In this document: piece after piece, positions 4,446 to 35,665 of the stretch
Layout: each line of letters opens with the position of its first letter
How positions within the stretch are numbered: position 1 is the stretch's first letter
Source: Escherichia phage REP4
DNA: 64,000 nt
Direction: 5' to 3' (one strand)
Sequence record: OQ174503.1
The notes under the pieces: generated by a model
Told to the model about the DNA's origin: nothing
The model's database searches: none
The model's input: only the letters and a program-made list of their open reading frames with translations
Position numbers and translations under genes: made by a program

Positions 4446-4916
4446 TTAATCATGTTTCCACACCCCATCGGTATTTGACCAAAGTCGCTGATTATCTGAA
4501 CCTCGCCACAGCTTTTTGGTCGGAAGATTTTTCTCATACTTCCCATCAATAATAACATCAACATATTTAAGCATTTCTAGTTGTTTAATATCTTCAAACT
4601 TATATCCTGTCCACAACCAAATGCTTTTATTTGGATAAAGATTTTTTACCGTTTGAACAATGCAATGAACATCATCTCGGTTATCAGGATAAAGAGGGTC
4701 TCCTCCAGTTATAGTTAATCCTTCTATATAATCATTATTCAAACATTCAATTAATTGTTCAAGTGTTTCACCAGTGAATGGAACGCCATTTCTAGCATTC
4801 CATGTTGATTTATTATAACACCCTTCACATTTATGCAAACACCCCGTAACGAAAAGAACGACCCTGCATCCAGGGCCATTCACAAAATCGCAGGGATAAA
4901 ATCTATCGTAATTCAT
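4446..4916 (-). CDS. nrdG: anaerobic ribonucleotide reductase activating enzyme (radical SAM)
   Basis: 156 aa, CxxxCxxC radical-SAM cluster motif (CLHKCEGC), ATGA overlap with nrdD. Confidence 0.9.
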   Translation of the reverse strand: MNYDRFYPCDFVNGPGCRVVLFVTGCLHKCEGCYNKSTWNARNGVPFTGETLEQLIECLNNDYIEGLTITGGDPLYPDNRDDVHCIVQTVKNLYPNKSIWLWTGYKFEDIKQLEMLKYVDVIIDGKYEKNLPTKKLWRGSDNQRLWSNTDGVWKHD

Positions 4917-6730
4917 TGGTGTTTAACCCTATGCATGATTTCTTTATTTTTGCCAAGATTAAATCCGCGTTCGTTCGGATTTCCCAAATAACCACAAGTT
5001 CTTCTTATTGTGTTCATCTTTTTAGGATCAGTTTCTCCACAAATAGAACAAACAAATCCGTTTTCAGTAGGAGTCATTTCATGGGTACTTCCACACGTAA
5101 AACATTTATCTACTGGCATGTTAACACCAAAATAATCTAAATGTTGTGCAGCATAATCCCATACAGCCTCAAGACCTTTTAGGTTATTTTTCATATCAGG
5201 AAGTTCAACATAAGAAATGTGACCGCCTGTCGCAATGAAATGATATGGGGCTTCGCGAGAAATCTTTTCAAACGGAGTAATATTTTCTTCTACTGAAACG
5301 TGGAAACTGTTGGTGTACCAGCCTTTATCAGTAACATCCTTTACACTTCCATATTTTTCGGTATCAAGTTTACAGAAGCGATAGCACAGGTTTTCAGCAG
5401 GAGTAGAATACAAACTAAAAGCAAAACCAGTTCTTTCAGTCCACTGCTTAAGACGAGCATTCATTTTAGTTAAAATTTCTTGTCCAATATCACGACCGAC
5501 AAGAATATTCAATTCGTGAATACCAATGTATCCTAGGGACACTGAACTTCTACCGTTTTTAAATAACTCAATTATGTCGTCGTCAGGTTTAAGACGAACC
5601 CCGAATGCACCTTCTTGGTAAAGAATAGGAGCAACAGTCGCTTTAACTCCTTTTAAGGAACTAATTCTACACATCAAAGCTTCAAAACATAAATCCATTC
5701 GTTCATTGAACAATTCGGCAAATTTCTGTTCATTGAACTGTGTTCCAGTATAAGAATCTAACGCAATACGAGGAAGATTCAGTGTTACAACACCAAGATT
5801 ATTACGTCCATCAAGAATTTCATTACCAGTCGAATCTTTCCATACACTCAAGAAACTACGACAACCCATTGGAGAAACAGGAATAGATGAACCGGTGATA
5901 GCTTTATTGTTCTTAGCCGAAATGATGTCAGGATACATTCTTTTGCTTGCACACTCTAAAGCAAGCTGCTTAATATCATAGTTCGGATCGTCTTTATAAA
6001 GATTAACACCCTCTTCAACGAACATAACAAGCTTAGGGAAAATAGGAGTTATCCCATCACGACCAAGGCCTTTAATACGATTTTTCAGAATTGCTTTCTG
6101 AATCATTCGTTCAGTCCAGTCAGTTCCCGTACCAAATGTAATTGTTACAAAAGGCGTTTGTCCGTTTGAACTAAAGAGAGTATTTACTTCATATTCATAA
6201 GCTTGGAACGCATCGTATACGTCTTTTTCTGTTTTAGACTGGGCGTAATTCAACGCATCAGCGATTTGCCATTTTTCTGCATCCTCAATATGTTTTGCGT
6301 AGGTGCGTTTAACATAAGGAGAAAGGACTTTATCTACATTCGCAAAAGTCGTTCCGCCATATTGATGGGAAGCAACCTGCGCAGTAATTTGTGCCATAAT
6401 TGCAGTAGCAACGCCAATTGATTTAGGAGTTTCAATCTGTGCATTACCGAGCTTAAATCCGTTCTCAAGCATTCCTTTTAAATCTACTAAACAACAATTA
6501 GTAAATGGAAGAGCAGGAGAATAATCAATATCATGGAAATGGATAATTCCGCTTTCATGCGCTTTCATAATAAAAGACGGGACCATATTTTTGGCAATGT
6601 GTTTAGACACAATACCAGCCATAAGGTCCCGTTGAGTTGGAAAAACACGAGAATCTTTATTAGCATTCTCGTTTAAAAGGTCTTTATTAGTTTTATGAAT
6701 TAATCCTTCAATTTCTTTTTCAATTGTCAT
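4913..6730 (-). CDS. nrdD: anaerobic ribonucleoside-triphosphate reductase, uninterrupted
   Basis: 605 aa; C-terminal glycyl-radical motif RRTCGYLG and Zn-ribbon cysteines; contiguous ORF with no intron. Confidence 0.95.
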   Translation of the reverse strand: MTIEKEIEGLIHKTNKDLLNENANKDSRVFPTQRDLMAGIVSKHIAKNMVPSFIMKAHESGIIHFHDIDYSPALPFTNCCLVDLKGMLENGFKLGNAQIETPKSIGVATAIMAQITAQVASHQYGGTTFANVDKVLSPYVKRTYAKHIEDAEKWQIADALNYAQSKTEKDVYDAFQAYEYEVNTLFSSNGQTPFVTITFGTGTDWTERMIQKAILKNRIKGLGRDGITPIFPKLVMFVEEGVNLYKDDPNYDIKQLALECASKRMYPDIISAKNNKAITGSSIPVSPMGCRSFLSVWKDSTGNEILDGRNNLGVVTLNLPRIALDSYTGTQFNEQKFAELFNERMDLCFEALMCRISSLKGVKATVAPILYQEGAFGVRLKPDDDIIELFKNGRSSVSLGYIGIHELNILVGRDIGQEILTKMNARLKQWTERTGFAFSLYSTPAENLCYRFCKLDTEKYGSVKDVTDKGWYTNSFHVSVEENITPFEKISREAPYHFIATGGHISYVELPDMKNNLKGLEAVWDYAAQHLDYFGVNMPVDKCFTCGSTHEMTPTENGFVCSICGETDPKKMNTIRRTCGYLGNPNERGFNLGKNKEIMHRVKHQ

Positions 6731-25538: not shown

Positions 25539-26012
25539 TTATTTGAACGATTTAACGTACTGAATAGAACCTTTACTATTCACGAAAGCGATTTTACCAT
25601 TTTTATTATACATGGTAGCAGTACGCTGATAGCCATAAGTTTGCTTACCAGATTGATAACCAACTAATGCAAAATTATCTTCACCCATTTTATTCTGTTT
25701 AGCGCGAATGCGTTCATGACCATGTGCCATAAGAACCTTAGCATCACCAGTTGCAATGGATCGACGAGTTTTTTCATCTTCAACTGTATTAACAAAGTCG
25801 TCAAATGAATCAAATTTAGCATGAGATTTATTATACAGTTTTCCATCTACTGCATAATTATATCCCTGTACATCCATCTCAACTTCTGTACCATCATCCA
25901 ATACAGCAGTGATTTTCTGTCCTTTTTTAAATTTCAAAAGATCAGTAAAAGATTCAGCAATAATTTGAGAATTAATAGTTGCTTCAGTAATAAATTCTTG
26001 ATATGTTTTCAT
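25539..26012 (-). CDS. internal-protein-like head protein with N-terminal capsid-targeting sequence
   Basis: 157 aa beginning MKTYQEFITEA, the conserved internal-protein leader shared with ipI. Confidence 0.6.
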   Translation of the reverse strand: MKTYQEFITEATINSQIIAESFTDLLKFKKGQKITAVLDDGTEVEMDVQGYNYAVDGKLYNKSHAKFDSFDDFVNTVEDEKTRRSIATGDAKVLMAHGHERIRAKQNKMGEDNFALVGYQSGKQTYGYQRTATMYNKNGKIAFVNSKGSIQYVKSFK

Positions 26013-26028
26013 GTGTATCCTTTAATTT

Positions 26029-26346
26029 TTATTCTTTAGGGAAGTTTTTAGAATATGCATCATAAAGCTTATTTCCAATACGGCGGAAAACTCTAGCCGC
26101 AAAACGATTTTCTGGGTTTTTAATCATGATTTGCATCATATAAGTACCCGCGTCAGAAAGAGCTTCTTCATAGTACCCGTTAATTTCTTTAAGAGTCCTA
26201 CGTTTACCACCAGGACCATCAACAGTGATTTTCCATTTACCTGTAGAAGTGCGACTTGGCGGCTCAACTTGTTCAATCCAGATATAACCGCCTTCTACAC
26301 GTTGTCCTTGGGCAGATTCTGCAATAAATTCTTTAAACGTTTTCAT
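26029..26346 (-). CDS. internal-protein-like head protein with capsid-targeting sequence
   Basis: 105 aa beginning MKTFKEFIAES; early promoter upstream. Confidence 0.6.
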   Translation of the reverse strand: MKTFKEFIAESAQGQRVEGGYIWIEQVEPPSRTSTGKWKITVDGPGGKRRTLKEINGYYEEALSDAGTYMMQIMIKNPENRFAARVFRRIGNKLYDAYSKNFPKE

Positions 26347-28234: not shown

Positions 28235-28629
28235 CGTGATTCCTTAACAAATTTCATAATTTCATCAAATTCATACGCAGCAAGTTTAAGCTGATGTTCC
28301 TTTTTAATCTTTTTACACTGTGCTTTCCAATCACGTACGCGTTTACGATAATGCCTTCCTTGATACCAGTATCCTACCCAATTTACAGGTACTAATAAAA
28401 GTGGAACTATTAATGGAAGAATTAGCATTAACACAAGTATTTCGCCAGAATCAATATCAGTCATAACATCTAAAACACCTCCAATAATCAATAGAATTAC
28501 AAATGATATGAGTATAACAGGACCTATTAATACATCAGTAGGAATTAGCTGGCGCTTTAATTCATACTTCAAAGGTTTACTTGGAAGGTATAGTGATGGC
28601 TTTGACATATTCTCTACATTCCTTAACAA
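28216..28629 (-). CDS. membrane protein, tandem paralog 3
   Basis: 137 aa; two hydrophobic helices; C-terminal FVKESRCK. Confidence 0.5.
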   Translation of the reverse strand: MLRNVENMSKPSLYLPSKPLKYELKRQLIPTDVLIGPVILISFVILLIIGGVLDVMTDIDSGEILVLMLILPLIVPLLLVPVNWVGYWYQGRHYRKRVRDWKAQCKKIKKEHQLKLAAYEFDEIMKFVKESRCKSQN

Positions 28630-29185
28630 ATTTTTCTAGTAATAAATCACTTTCAAAATTAGGATTTTCCACTAATTTATCAAAAAGATCATCAACAATA
28701 TTCAAGATATTTCTTTTACTAAGAATACGTTTATTTTCATGCTTCGTTTCAGAATCAACTATAAGAGTAAAGAAATATTTCTTTCCCTGAAATTTTACTG
28801 TAGTATCAATATAGAATAAATTTGACTTTTGTAAGTTACGTTTAAACCATGCGTCACTTAAACTATAAACACCGAGATAATCAAAATCGTCGTTTAAATA
28901 ACAAACTGTCCATTCAGGAGAAATGAAATCAGTAAATTCAACATCAAAATCACATGTCAATAAATGAATTGATTCAATATTGTTAATAAGTATTCCAGGA
29001 CGTATTAAAGACTTTTTACCTCTGGAAAATCTTCCAGAAAGACTTTCATCAGTTTCATATGAAGAACCCCAATAATAATTACGTCCTTCTGCCATACGTT
29101 TAAGAGCATTTAGTAATTGATCTGGAACATCAACCTGTCTTTGGAACTCTTCAAACATTGAATTGAAATCACTTTGCATTTTCAT
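28577..29185 (-). CDS. hypothetical protein
   Basis: 202-aa ORF. Confidence 0.5.
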   Translation of the reverse strand: MKMQSDFNSMFEEFQRQVDVPDQLLNALKRMAEGRNYYWGSSYETDESLSGRFSRGKKSLIRPGILINNIESIHLLTCDFDVEFTDFISPEWTVCYLNDDFDYLGVYSLSDAWFKRNLQKSNLFYIDTTVKFQGKKYFFTLIVDSETKHENKRILSKRNILNIVDDLFDKLVENPNFESDLLLEKFVKECREYVKAITIPSK

Positions 29186-29226: not shown

Positions 29227-29820
29227 TTATTTCAGAGAATTAATGTATTCCTGAACATCGGCAGAAGTAGTTTCAACCCCAGAAATATTACCGTTAAAGG
29301 TTTCAACTCGAGCAAGGGTATCTTCAATATCAACCTTAGTCAGTGCTGCAATTTCAACTACATCATCAGCAGTACTAATTCCAAGGGCATTTGCCGCACG
29401 AGTTTCACGGATATATTCCAATTTAACTGCAAGTTCTTGGCGAGCATCATCTAACTCAACTACTTTCTTAGCGATTTCAATTCGCATTTCGGCATAACCG
29501 TCAGCCTTAGTAGTCAACTGCTCAGCTGTTCGACGATATAGTAAACCAAGTTTAGCATGCATTGTTACATCTTGACCTTCGGAAAGAAGCTTGCGAATTT
29601 CACGCTCTTTTGATTCGGCCTGTCGATTCTTTTCGATAACAAGTTCACGAATACGTTTTTCTTCATTAATAGATTTAACGGAAGCAGTTTTTAGATCTTT
29701 AATTTTATCAAGTAGTTTTGCTGCTGCAGCAGTATACTGTTCTTCAACAGATAGATTTTTAGCCATAGCAGAACCAAGTTTAGTGCGAATAAAATCAACA
29801 ATTTTCTTCAGTGTGTTCAT
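29227..29820 (-). CDS. coiled-coil protein
   Basis: 197 aa, highly charged helical sequence. Confidence 0.5.
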
Positions 29821-30108: not shown

Positions 30109-30372
30109 TTATTTCATATTATTGAAATATTCTTCTGCGATTTCATCGTTATCGTGGTAAACTTTAGAAGACAGTTTAACATAACCTTCAGCAGTGAACA
30201 TATTAATCACAACTTTTACAGTATACCACTGACCGTCTTCATTACCCATTACTGCGTAAGTTTCAAACATCGGATGGTCAGGACCGATGACTTTAATATC
30301 ATTCACTGTACGACCGAAATCTTCTGAAACGCATTTCATAAAGAAGTTGAACAGTTCGCCGTAATTATCCAT
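30109..30372 (-). CDS. hypothetical protein
   Basis: Start refined to MDNYGELFNFF... behind GGAGAA, directly downstream of an early promoter. Confidence 0.5.
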   Translation of the reverse strand: MDNYGELFNFFMKCVSEDFGRTVNDIKVIGPDHPMFETYAVMGNEDGQWYTVKVVINMFTAEGYVKLSSKVYHDNDEIAEEYFNNMK

Positions 30373-30406
30373 TTCATTCTCCAAGTTGTTTTTCTGTATC
30401 AGTAGT

Positions 30407-30435
30407 TGATAGTTGTATAGTACCACGGAAGAACA
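30407..30435 (-). promoter_or_regulatory. sigma70-type early promoter (-35 TTTACA, 17 bp, -10 TACTAT)
   Basis: Promoter-family member with conserved leader ACAACTATCAACTAC. Confidence 0.55.
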
Positions 30436-30579
30436 GGGATGTAAACAATTTTGTGAAAAAATTTTTAAAAAGTTTTAGGGAATTCTAGGGAAGGGAGGGG
30501 CAATTAAAGGATAGGATAATATATTATAAAGGGTAGAAACTAAATGATGCCTAGAGAGGTCCAGAAAGGCCTAGATATC

Positions 30580-30604
30580 AAAAAGCCCTATCATTTAGAT
30601 AGGG
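30580..30604 (-). terminator. hairpin terminator (CCCUAUC-UAAAU-GAUAGGG + U-run)
   Basis: 7-bp stem, 5-nt loop, T5 tract on the minus strand, just after the stop of the 30613-31176 gene. Confidence 0.55.
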
Positions 30605-30612
30605 ATTTAAAA

Positions 30613-31176
30613 TTATTTACCTAGTTTAGTTATTATAGCTTCTGCGGCAGCTTTTAGTTTAGATGCGGTGTTAATACGATTTTTAATTTCAGTATACGCA
30701 TCGCCAAGAACGTCAAGGCTATCAGAATAAACGCTTACACTATTGCGTTCGCTATTTGAAATAGAACCTTTAGTTTTACGATCAAAATCAATGTACACGT
30801 CTTGAAGATCATGGGCTGCCTTCTTTGCATCATCCAATGCATCAAGAGCTTTATTCAAAGCATTAACGTATTTTTTAGTGTCGAACATATTCTTAGAAAT
30901 TTTAACAGGCGCACGTTCAGGAGTAGCTAAGGCAGATTTAGGAACCTGAGCGCCAGATGCCAGTTTCTTAGAAATTTTGAAAAATGCTTTATTGAATTTA
31001 TTTTCTTGACTCATCGTAAAAGAACTATTATCGATGTTATACATTTCAATAGCTTTAGCTTTCCACTTAAGAAAATCGCCACGGTCTTTTGGGTCCAATT
31101 GGAAGAATACTTTAGTAAGTTCTGCTTCAGATGGTAATTTTGCTGCTTCGGTTAAAAATTCGGCATAAGTTTTCAT
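30613..31176 (-). CDS. internal-protein-like protein with capsid-targeting sequence
   Basis: 187 aa beginning MKTYAEFLTEAA; no T4 counterpart at this position that I recall. Confidence 0.55.
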   Translation of the reverse strand: MKTYAEFLTEAAKLPSEAELTKVFFQLDPKDRGDFLKWKAKAIEMYNIDNSSFTMSQENKFNKAFFKISKKLASGAQVPKSALATPERAPVKISKNMFDTKKYVNALNKALDALDDAKKAAHDLQDVYIDFDRKTKGSISNSERNSVSVYSDSLDVLGDAYTEIKNRINTASKLKAAAEAIITKLGK

Positions 31177-31263
31177 TTAAAATCCTTGAAATAATCTATC
31201 GGTTGGTTATTAATTATTTATTACTTTGTTATTATCCGTAACAGCGTTATCCGAGTGATTCAA

Positions 31264-31296
31264 ACTAAAAAGCCCCAACCTTTCGGTCGGGGCTAA
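31264..31296 (-). terminator. hairpin terminator (GCCCCGACC-GAAA-GGUUGGGGC + U5), copy 1 of a 33-bp direct repeat
   Basis: 9-bp stem with GAAA tetraloop and T5 tract on the minus strand, after the stop of the 31302-31775 gene. Confidence 0.65.
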
Positions 31297-31301
31297 GAAT
31301 G

Positions 31302-31775
31302 TTATTTGATTTGTTTAGCAGACCAAATGCGGTCTTTGATGATTTTTTGGAGATCTTCAACATACTCTAGGTCATGAGCATGTGGATTATCTTTGAAACT
31401 ATAGGCACGGGCTAATTTTTGGCCTTCGGTTTTAATTACTAAAAGCTCTTTAAGGATAGCTTCATATTTAGCGATAATTCCTTTAACAATATTTTTTTCT
31501 TGTGCAGCTTTAGGATCTGCTTTAGGAGCAGGTTTACCCGAAGCCTTTGCAAAAGCAGCACCAGTAGCAACTAAACTTTTCCAGGCCATACTAACCGCAT
31601 TTCCTGTAAATCCTTCTGCTTTCATGTCGCGAGCAAACTGGAATCGTGATTCGTCAGAAGCATCTTTATAGGAATATTTACCCGCTGCAATGGCTGCTTT
31701 TGCGACAGCTTGAATTTCGGTGCTAGATGCTTCATTTAACACCGCTTCATTTAAAAATTGAGCATATGATTTCAT
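31302..31775 (-). CDS. internal-protein-like protein with capsid-targeting sequence
   Basis: 157 aa beginning MKSYAQFLNEA; Ala/Lys-rich; late promoter upstream. Confidence 0.55.
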   Translation of the reverse strand: MKSYAQFLNEAVLNEASSTEIQAVAKAAIAAGKYSYKDASDESRFQFARDMKAEGFTGNAVSMAWKSLVATGAAFAKASGKPAPKADPKAAQEKNIVKGIIAKYEAILKELLVIKTEGQKLARAYSFKDNPHAHDLEYVEDLQKIIKDRIWSAKQIK

Positions 31776-31815
31776 CTTATTTCCTGTTTTAATTCGTGGA
31801 TTTAATATACTACTA

Positions 31816-31823
31816 TATTTATA
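31816..31823 (-). promoter_or_regulatory. late promoter (TATAAATA)
   Basis: Exact TATAAATA on the minus strand upstream of the 31302-31775 gene. Confidence 0.5.
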
Positions 31824-31855
31824 CTAAAAAGCCCCAACCTTTCGGTCGGGGCTAA
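31823..31855 (-). terminator. hairpin terminator, copy 2 of the 33-bp direct repeat
   Basis: Identical to 31264-31296 (ACTAAAAAGCCCCAACCTTTCGGTCGGGGCTAAG on the plus strand). Confidence 0.65.
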
Positions 31856-31904
31856 GCCTTGCGGCAACCTTGTCGGGGTTCCACCTGCTAAGGCAAGTGT
31901 TTGT

Positions 31905-32061
31905 ACGAAACGCCGGGATTCGAACCCGGTTATTAAGCAGTTGACGCTACTTAATATTTTTAAAAGGCCATATCTCGACCATATCCGAACGTTCCGTCAA
32001 AAACGCTACTCGGCTTACGGCAAAGATATTTCCTCGAATCGATAATTCGGTGCGCCGTTTC
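31905..32061 (-). ncRNA. putative stable small RNA with tRNA-like acceptor/T-arm (T4 species-1/rnaC-like)
   Basis: Perfect T-arm (CCGGG-UUCGAAU-CCCGG) and a closing helix GAAACG/CGUUUC, about 155 nt, no ORF, followed by a terminator; boundaries approximate. Confidence 0.4.
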
Positions 32062-32164
32062 TGCTGTGATGTAAGAGGGCATCAACAAATCATAAAGATT
32101 TATTAACACAATTCCTTACCCAGGGAACATCAGTCCGACGACTTACCGGTAGCGACCCGGTTTC

Positions 32165-32515
32165 TTAATATTCTTTTAAAGCATCAATCTGTTCACGACG
32201 TTTACGCCATAAATCAATTGCTTCATACGCAGATTCAGCATTTCGAATTGGACGGCATTTATATAAAGACTTGTGATTTTGATATTGCGTAGATAACGGA
32301 ATTTTATCTAAAAGGTCTTTACGTTCAAAGTATTCGTAACCATCTAAGCCAAATGAACGATTTTTGAGAAATTGCCAATGACCAAATTCGTTTTGAATAT
32401 AAATATAATCCGCGTGTTGATAAAGTAAATTAATTTCACGAAATGAGATATGTTTTTCATATTCATTGAAGTAAAATGTTAAATCATGAACTACTAAATA
32501 AACATTACCTTTCAT
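32165..32515 (-). CDS. hypothetical protein
   Basis: 116-aa ORF between tRNA-Arg and the small-RNA region. Confidence 0.5.
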   Translation of the reverse strand: MKGNVYLVVHDLTFYFNEYEKHISFREINLLYQHADYIYIQNEFGHWQFLKNRSFGLDGYEYFERKDLLDKIPLSTQYQNHKSLYKCRPIRNAESAYEAIDLWRKRREQIDALKEY

Positions 32516-34532: not shown

Positions 34533-34560
34533 TTTATTCTCCTCAGTAGTTGATAGGGTA

Positions 34561-34589
34561 ATAGTATCACAACTAAAACCCTATGTAAA
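34561..34589 (-). promoter_or_regulatory. sigma70-type early promoter (-35 TTTACA, 17 bp, -10 TACTAT)
   Basis: Promoter-family member; -10 flanked by inverted repeat TAGGGT/ACCCTA. Confidence 0.5.
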
Positions 34590-34608
34590 CAACTTTGTGA
34601 AATATTTA

Positions 34609-34896: not shown

Positions 34897-34926
34897 TTTA
34901 TTTTCCTAATTAATTTTGATGAGATA

Positions 34927-34955
34927 ATAGTATCACTACCTCATCAACGTGTAAA
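34927..34955 (-). promoter_or_regulatory. sigma70-type early promoter for ipI
   Basis: -35 TTTACA, 17 bp, -10 TACTAT; -10 flanked by inverted repeat TTGATGAG/CTCATCAA. Confidence 0.5.
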
Positions 34956-34968
34956 CAACTTTGTGAAA

Positions 34969-35665
<697 letters not shown>

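Follow-up and report, generated by a model that had tools for sequence, protein, structure and literature searches.

What occupies the site between the stable-RNA gene rnaC and gene e.8 in Escherichia phage REP4, where phage T4 carries a single copy of a terminator only? The question was addressed in a stretch of 64,000 nucleotides of REP4 DNA (sequence record OQ174503.1), which is referred to below as the window. Two genes, here called A and B, are placed at this site (Table 1). They are probably paralogous members of a T4-type internal head protein family that has gone unannotated as such (phrog_2280), and they would form a third internal-protein locus. The comparison of related genomes shows that the genes are gained and lost as modules at terminators. 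A counter-defence or anti-restriction role of the two proteins is suggested by analogy only.

The window belongs to Tequatrovirus; the region is 99.9% identical to that of Shigella phage SF2-1 and 95-98% identical to those of many other Tequatrovirus genomes. All genes of the locus are on the minus strand and follow each other in the order of transcription as ipI, the tRNA genes, an open reading frame (ORF) of 116 residues, rnaD/rnaC, B, A, a spacer and e.8. The anchors on both sides of the variable site are conserved, with 94-97% identity to T4 for the rnaD/rnaC region and 93% for the spacer upstream of e.8. No Rfam 15 family was found for rnaC or rnaD, even at a permissive E-value, and these RNAs are recognisable via homology to the T4 annotation alone.

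The first indication of the nature of the two genes is found in their N-termini. A preliminary description of this DNA had claimed that both ORFs begin with the leader of an internal protein; both were found, and they align in this section with known internal proteins. The leader had also been noticed in ipI and in two genes beside the lysozyme gene e, and a start of the form MK[TS][YF]x[EQK]F does occur in five ORFs of the window at three loci, namely A and B, ipI, and the two ORFs beside e. One of the latter codes for a protein of 105 residues (26029-26346, minus strand) with the leader MKTFKEFIAE↓S (the arrow marks the cleavage position). It belongs to phrog_3966, a family of 'unknown function', and is therefore one more leader gene without an internal-protein label in the databases.

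The leaders of A and B align with those of T4 IPI, IPII and IPIII and of PST IpIV-VI, including the motif L/I-x-E↓A/S that is cut by gp21. The gp21-type motif L-x-E↓A is located at residue 10, as LTE↓A in A and LNE↓A in B, and suggests that both proteins are processed by this protease. The mature N-termini predicted from the motif are Ala11 in A (AAKLPSEAELTK) and either Ala11 (AVLNEASSTEIQAVAK) or Ala16 (ASSTEIQAVAK) in B. The predicted mature proteins, with masses of about 19.6 and 16 kDa, are basic (isoelectric points 9.4-9.5), like IPII and IPIII. In an hhalign comparison with IPIII the match was limited to residues 1-10. Similarity confined to the leader is typical of internal proteins.

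Both proteins match phrog_2280 over their full length (E = 7e-53 for A and 1e-59 for B), a family labelled 'unknown function', which also includes a 205-residue protein of the Dhakavirus phages JS98 and IME281 and a 177-residue protein (P0011) of Klebsiella Jiaodavirus phages. The paralogy of A and B is visible only through profiles, and BLASTP of A against B detected the leader alone. In a Pfam search the two proteins gave only sub-threshold noise, and PF11634 (IPI_T4) matched the ipI protein of the window alone (E = 2e-53). The members of the family consist of the leader, a small helical N-domain (AGKYSYKD...RF.F..DM...GF...AWKS), a linker rich in Pro, Ala and Lys, and a helical C-terminal hairpin, of which at least three interchangeable types were found. 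The leader and the cleavage motif are conserved over divergent members in four genera, and the adjoining sequence is variable. The family is confined to T4-like phages and is represented by 16 sequences at 50% identity among 1.84 billion proteins. Nearly all cluster members are named 'hypothetical protein'; the exceptions are the UniRef name 'Internal head protein' for a Klebsiella phage protein and one evidently spurious name for gene A.

The ratio of non-synonymous to synonymous substitution rates (dN/dS) of gene B is below 1, approximately 0.03-0.07 in the C-domain and 0.16-0.24 in the N-domain. The N-domain evolves about 6-8 times faster than the C-domain and has three allele types recurring across genera. 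As judged from these ratios, gene B is under purifying selection and is a real gene. Disrupted members of the family were also encountered. The homologue of the Klebsiella phage KpV477 (locus L020, 3341-3731) is annotated as two short ORFs, and gene A is split in vB_EcoM_OE5505 and truncated in ECO07P1, two isolated phages with deposited genomes. Either sequencing errors or natural loss of function could account for these cases.

The AlphaFold2 model of B is all-alpha with a predicted local distance difference test score (pLDDT) of 74.7, and the model of A (pLDDT 46, low confidence) was too poor for a structure search. A Foldseek search of the PDB with the B model gave nothing below E = 0.8, and the same search of BFVD gave orthologues only. 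A profile search of PDB sequences gave no match for the proteins.

The arrangement of regulatory signals around the two genes is the second line of evidence. Gene B had been described as flanked by identical terminator repeats of 33 bp. The copies are indeed exact, but the maximal repeat has a length of 34 bp (copies T1 and T2 in Table 1), with identity at 34 of 34 bases that reaches past the stem into the unpaired flanks. With up to three mismatches allowed there are two occurrences only in the 64 kb of the window, where shuffles expect 0. On the minus strand each copy reads AGCCCCGACC-GAAA-GGUUGGGGCU followed by UUUUU. This is the GAAA-tetraloop terminator that had been recognised earlier, with a 10-bp stem, a U5 tail and a folding energy of -20.3 kcal/mol (z = -4.1 and -5.1; no shuffle folded equally well). 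Variant copies of the repeat, for example AGCCCTAGCC in RB51, retain all ten stem pairs via G-U or A-U pairs. Copy T2 is the sole copy present in T4 and PST.

The late promoter attributed earlier to gene B is present as an exact TATAAATA, 40 nt before the ATG. It abuts the upstream repeat copy, its first T being the final base of the repeat, and it is kept at the same place in RB51, G50, pEK20 and the related loci L007-L009 and L016. Upstream of gene A, RB14 carries GATAAATA where the window has AATAAATA. The terminator of gene A differs from the 34-bp repeat and is a weaker hairpin; its 3' half (GGGCTTTTTG; GGGCTTTTTGGTATCT) is the point where identity to the empty site resumes. These sequence features of the locus are real and non-random.

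Table 1. Features of the A/B locus and its surroundings in the REP4 window (positions in nucleotides of the window)
Feature	Position	Strand	Remarks
gene B	31302..31775	-	157 residues, begins MKSYAQFLNEAVLNEA; leader MKSYAQFLNE↓A, second LNE↓A at residue 15
gene A	30613..31176	-	187 residues, begins MKTYAEFLTEAAKL; leader MKTYAEFLTE↓A; paralogue of B
terminator copy T2	31823..31856	-	upstream repeat copy; native terminator of the tRNA/rnaC operon
late promoter TATAAATA of gene B	31816..31823	-	canonical T4 late promoter
terminator copy T1	31264..31297	-	downstream repeat copy; begins 4 nt past the stop codon of B
near-consensus late-promoter-like box AATAAATA	31215..31222	-	upstream of gene A; one mismatch to consensus; putative
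gene A terminator	30578..30604	-	CCCTATC-TAAAT-GATAGGG then CUUUUU; stem-loop 30604-30586, -10.4 to -11.5 kcal/mol
ipI	34896-34609	-	head of the transcription order; leader-bearing
eleven tRNA genes	33554-32534	-	between ipI and the 116-residue ORF
116-residue ORF	32165-32515	-	phrog_3355, unknown function; between tRNA-Arg and rnaD; RB51 record: 'similar to RB69ORF150c'
rnaD/rnaC stable-RNA region and 3' trailer	31857..32164	-	terminal part of the tRNA operon; anchors the variable site on its upstream side
early-promoter-like site	30417..30445	-	conserved spacer upstream of e.8, outside the cassettes; downstream anchor; repeat family D2, as in the ipI flanks
e.8	30109..30372	-	conserved downstream anchor gene; 96% identical to T4 e.8
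leader ORFs beside lysozyme gene e	25539-26012, 26029-26346	-	e = 26418-26912

The comparison of this site with the corresponding section of related genomes is the third line of evidence. Four states were found, with breakpoints located exactly at the terminators, as would be expected of the exchangeable cassette that the preliminary description had proposed. The empty site of T4 and PST consists of rnaC, one terminator copy, the spacer and e.8. B alone, between two terminator copies, is found in RB51 and in two IMG/VR genomes, and A alone in RB14 and, as a junction query suggests, likewise in Shfl2. B followed by A is the configuration of the REP4 window, G50, Bas37 and others. The GGGGCTTTTT(A/G)G of the preceding terminator is directly followed by the start of each module, and each module ends with a terminator of its own, which for B is a second copy of the preceding one and for A its own hairpin. 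Deletion of B from the B+A configuration by a crossover between the 34-bp copies yields exactly the layout of RB14, and the same deletion from RB51 yields exactly the layout of T4. By its junctions, gene A is evidently a cassette too, bounded by a different terminator. Each gene thus appears as an autonomous module of promoter, ribosome-binding site, leader-bearing ORF and intrinsic terminator, and the modules are stacked behind the terminator of the tRNA operon. Since the modules begin and end at terminators, recombination there would add or remove whole modules and leave the neighbours undisturbed.

The 34-bp repeat was found at 541 places in 433 phage records. Among the records listed there are at most two copies per record, and the repeat is therefore specific to the rnaC-e.8 locus; the objection that it might be a ubiquitous terminator fails for this reason. 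Gene A is present in 164 phage records, at an identity of at least 84% in all and at least 95% in 163 of them, and the family of gene B in 511. About 127 of the 164 records hold A together with B, and about 37 hold A with no closely similar B; in the sample taken for the A-only and A+B junctions, four of 15 rows were contiguous. A further 303 records are empty or hold B only (five of 18 sampled rows empty). The denominator is approximately 687 INPHARED records that hold the rnaC flank. The class counts are estimates from sampled rows; the similarity tool merged both halves of the split junction queries. Because IMG/VR is poor in T4-like contigs (the repeat gave 4 loci there and e.8 gave 10), the counts rest on INPHARED summaries together with the sampled rows. 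A rearrangement of a different type was observed in Escherichia phage vB_Eco_F26 (OP870145; L022, 402-1150), in which a tandem duplication of 351 bp, equivalent to positions 30349-30699 of the window, spans the 5' end of e.8, the spacer, the A terminator and the 3' end of A, and leaves an ORF fragment of 123 nt. The duplication could be genuine or could be an artefact of the assembly.

The family is located at the same position, between the tRNA genes and e.x, in Tequatrovirus, Mosigvirus, Dhakavirus and Jiaodavirus. In JS98 the site holds a DUF7338 membrane protein and the 205-residue leader protein, each with TATAAATA, and in Mosigvirus pEK20 the terminator, TATAAATA and a leader protein of 208 residues. 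Some genomes have a B allele and a DUF7338 membrane protein at this site, and Gaprivervirus VR7 has no leader protein there. The predicted DUF7338 membrane protein (phrog_2143, 184 residues) is leaderless and lies at 4636-5190 in loci L012 and L014 and at approximately 5325-5880 in L013 and L015. In Dhakavirus and related genomes it stands before the leader proteins in some and after them in others. The site is therefore not reserved for internal proteins. The four states with terminator junctions, together with the other cargo in other genera, make the cassette reading well supported. A cassette of the transposon or homing-endonuclease type was considered and rejected: no transposase or endonuclease gene is present, the cassettes hold a leader-bearing ORF only, and the 34-bp sequence is a functional terminator and not a target-site duplication.

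The following course of events is proposed. Each gene would be transcribed late, B from the canonical TATAAATA and A from the one-mismatch variant or by read-through. The leader of 10 residues would target the protein to the prohead scaffolding core, where the prohead protease gp21 would cut after Glu10. The basic mature proteins would then remain in the head with the DNA and be injected along with it. Exchange of the modules would use a shared recombination sequence of 34 bp for B and of about 12-16 bp for A, the expected crossover sequence for A being GGGCTTTTTGG. After injection the proteins would most likely act against host defence, by analogy with two sets of leader-bearing proteins: Ip1, Ip2 and Ip3, each of which blocks a distinct GmrSD enzyme (Silas et al. 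2025, PMC12373910), and Bas37_0260, a protein at the ipI locus that inhibits McrBC (HIDEN-SEQ, 10.1101/2025.11.20.689424). The analogy is stronger than before because Ip1-3 and Bas37_0260 are now known as inhibitors of type IV restriction.

Published experiments on orthologues bear on several of these steps. In phage fD1 (HE956711) the B orthologue g140, which is 96.8% identical to B, is included in the list of particle-associated proteins obtained through liquid chromatography coupled to tandem mass spectrometry (LC-MS/MS) of purified virions (PMC8309999). Packaging of both proteins is thus suggested by the leader and, for B, weakly by the fD1 virions. No virion data for gene A were found in the literature, and the fPS-phage paper holds no proteomics. 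Phage Bas37, which is KarlGJung (MZ501089), carries both genes, bas37_0243 being A and bas37_0244 being B. In the HIDEN-SEQ transposon library of Bas37 on K-12 deltaRM, B was non-essential, with insertions at 29 of 34 TA sites (10.1101/2025.11.20.689424).

Several points weigh against the assignment of A and B to the injected internal proteins or against the proposed role. The particle-associated list of fD1 (PMC8309999) also has DenV, lysozyme e and NudE and is therefore of poor specificity, which makes the virion evidence weak. In the HIDEN-SEQ data, insertions in B caused no significant change of fitness on CFT073 and CFE299, the two clinical isolates checked, and the A orthologue bas37_0243 was classed 'Essential' on K-12 deltaRM, with insertions at 1 of 48 TA sites (10.1101/2025.11.20.689424). 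The Pfam, PDB and BFVD searches showed no likeness in fold or sequence to any known anti-restriction protein. Gene A has no canonical late promoter; only AATAAATA is located at the distance corresponding to that of the B promoter.

An 'Essential' score does not fit the picture of a classical internal protein, since these are dispensable. For A it also conflicts with the absence of the gene from most relatives and with its split or truncated copies, and the natural absence argues for dispensability. The Bas37 result could reflect a real dependence, or a problem of the stock or of the mapping. It may well be that the call is technical and that A is as dispensable as other internal proteins, for instance if the library stock had lost the cassette by recombination between terminators or if insertions were counter-selected for a reason unrelated to the function of A. 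Losses and gains of the A cassette at precisely these junctions are seen in nature, the Bas37 counts are at the gene level only, and the HIDEN-SEQ authors ascribe most differences between T4 and Bas37 to technicalities of classification and make no comment on bas37_0243. However, one TA site in A did gather reads, and the neighbours B and e.8 were saturated with insertions. The Bas37 reference genome is described as isolated in Basel, and the BASEL phage collection comes from the same research group, which also counts against a technical origin of the score.

An extended reading, which is unlikely, goes further. If the dependence were real, A would be an accessory protein carried by a cassette and targeted to the head that its resident phage nevertheless cannot lose. 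Its target might be some function of K-12 beyond EcoKI and the three type IV systems, or else a toxic partner encoded by the phage, and A would be an 'addictive' injected effector, a new functional class within the internal proteins. In a broader form of this reading, the injected proteins of phrog_2280 would make up a third arsenal shared across genera, with targets outside the GmrSD and McrBC set examined to date.

It is improbable that A, and perhaps B, is instead a factor of the prohead core or of assembly, which the leader takes into the scaffolding core for head assembly or organisation of the DNA. Such a role would account for the failure to disrupt A in Bas37, and basic helical proteins with a linker rich in Pro, Ala and Lys would suit contacts with DNA or scaffold; the high conservation of A in 163 of 164 records points in the same direction. 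However, A is missing from about three quarters of the related genomes with the locus (present in 164 of about 687), including T4, T2, PST and RB51, the deposited genomes of OE5505 and ECO07P1 have disrupted copies, and the paralogue B is dispensable.

The two identical hairpins could also be regarded as two terminators that are both needed and whose likeness is maintained by selection or gene conversion, with no role in exchange. Both are strong intrinsic terminators and are suitably placed, and the pairing-preserving substitutions in the stem show selection on the structure. This explanation is nevertheless distinctly improbable: empty sites contain one copy exactly, B in filled sites stands between two, the hybrid flanks of the A-only and B-only states are as expected of crossovers inside the repeat, and the identity runs beyond the stem into the unpaired flanks. 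It is very improbable that A and B are unpackaged cytoplasmic late proteins whose leader DNA was kept or acquired only by recombination with internal-protein genes, for although the 5' ends of A, B and ipI are similar in DNA (repeat families D6/D7) and packaging of A is a prediction from its leader, that leader and its cleavage motif persist in divergent members of four genera next to variable sequence, and the B orthologue was detected in the fD1 virions.

Some features of the surrounding region should be described in addition. The tRNA cluster has 11 genes in the window versus 8 in T4, and segB is absent from the window. An early-promoter block of 54 nt is present in three copies (69-78% identical; repeat family D2, also D5), of which two, 34550-34603 and 34916-34969, bracket ipI and the third, 30406-30459, lies upstream of e.8. 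These blocks resemble the conserved flanking signal blocks proposed for classical internal-protein loci. Further downstream on the minus strand, e.5 (28577-29185) and e.6 (29227-29820) are orthologues of bas37_0239 and bas37_0240. Both are non-essential on K-12, and a deletion of bas37_0240 was built by the HIDEN-SEQ authors; both are strongly depleted (log2 fold change -3.6 and -6.5, adjusted p = 0; 10.1101/2025.11.20.689424) in the comparison that comes first in the table and that, going by the order of its sheets, should set K-12 against the uropathogenic E. coli (UPEC) CFT073. The fD1 orthologues of e.5 and e.6 are also in the particle-associated list (PMC8309999).

The kind of system is already known, and the locus and the family are effectively unlabelled in the databases. 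In the GenBank record of RB51, B bears the note 'flanked by 34 bp imperfect direct repeat', and the record of RB14 notes that A resembles two RB69 ORFs. These records do not call A or B internal proteins, though their annotators did give the names Ip4 and Ip5 to genes of the classical loci. The two ORFs are not discussed in Petrov 2010 or in Nolan 2006. Silas et al. 2025 describe 'two Ip loci' and found no targets for ip4-10 (PMC12373910). Current papers still count two Ip loci, and their tests are confined to ip1-10. A conserved cross-genus family at a third locus, present in about 500 sequenced phages and 'hypothetical' almost everywhere, adds candidates to the restriction arms race. With the four natural configurations, phages that have and that lack each gene can be compared in host range, and the junctions, which run exactly from terminator to terminator, illustrate cleanly how T4-like phages swap small modules.

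It is important to compare this locus with known systems. A and B are similar to the T4-type internal proteins (Mullaney and Black 1996) in the leader MKTYxEFxxE with L/I-x-E↓A at residue 10 and in the small basic mature proteins. In both cases there is no mutual similarity beyond the leader, and the presence of the genes varies between close relatives. B also shares the late promoter, as an exact TATAAATA; A has a near-consensus box only. However, A and B are localized at a third site, from rnaC to e.8, and not at ipI or at the e/ipII-ipIII locus, and their family phrog_2280 is labelled as an internal protein in one UniRef entry only. They also differ by the two-domain helical architecture with the Pro/Ala/Lys linker, and A is apparently non-disruptable in Bas37. 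Bas37_0260, Ip2 and Ip3 resemble A and B in being accessory Tequatrovirus proteins whose homology ends with the leader. Their action against type IV restriction is proven, whereas insertions in B were neutral on K-12, CFT073 and CFE299.

The PeSL (promoter-early stem-loop) cassettes, mobile regulatory elements of T4-type phages, have a motif of terminator plus promoter where indels of hyperplastic regions begin and end, and it was proposed that these motifs recombine with each other (Arbiol et al. 2010; Comeau et al. 2014, PMC4122927). A composite terminator-promoter motif is likewise present at the module borders of the A/B locus. The assignment to PeSL was nevertheless rejected. A PeSL joins its stem-loop to an early promoter, whereas here the stem-loop adjoins a late promoter in the case of B and no canonical one in the case of A, and the motif is confined to one locus, with at most two copies per genome among the records listed.

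Repoila et al. 1994, a paper cited in PMC12373910 and PMC3012670, reportedly proposed that internal-protein genes are shuffled via conserved flanking signals. Such polymorphic internal-protein loci are similar to the A/B locus in having variable leader ORFs between reiterated regulatory sequences that could mediate shuffling, and the ipI gene of the window, flanked by repeated early-promoter blocks (D2), conforms to this arrangement. The A/B locus differs in that the sequence reiterated there is an intrinsic terminator with a late promoter attached, and in that the four recombinant states to be expected are observed.

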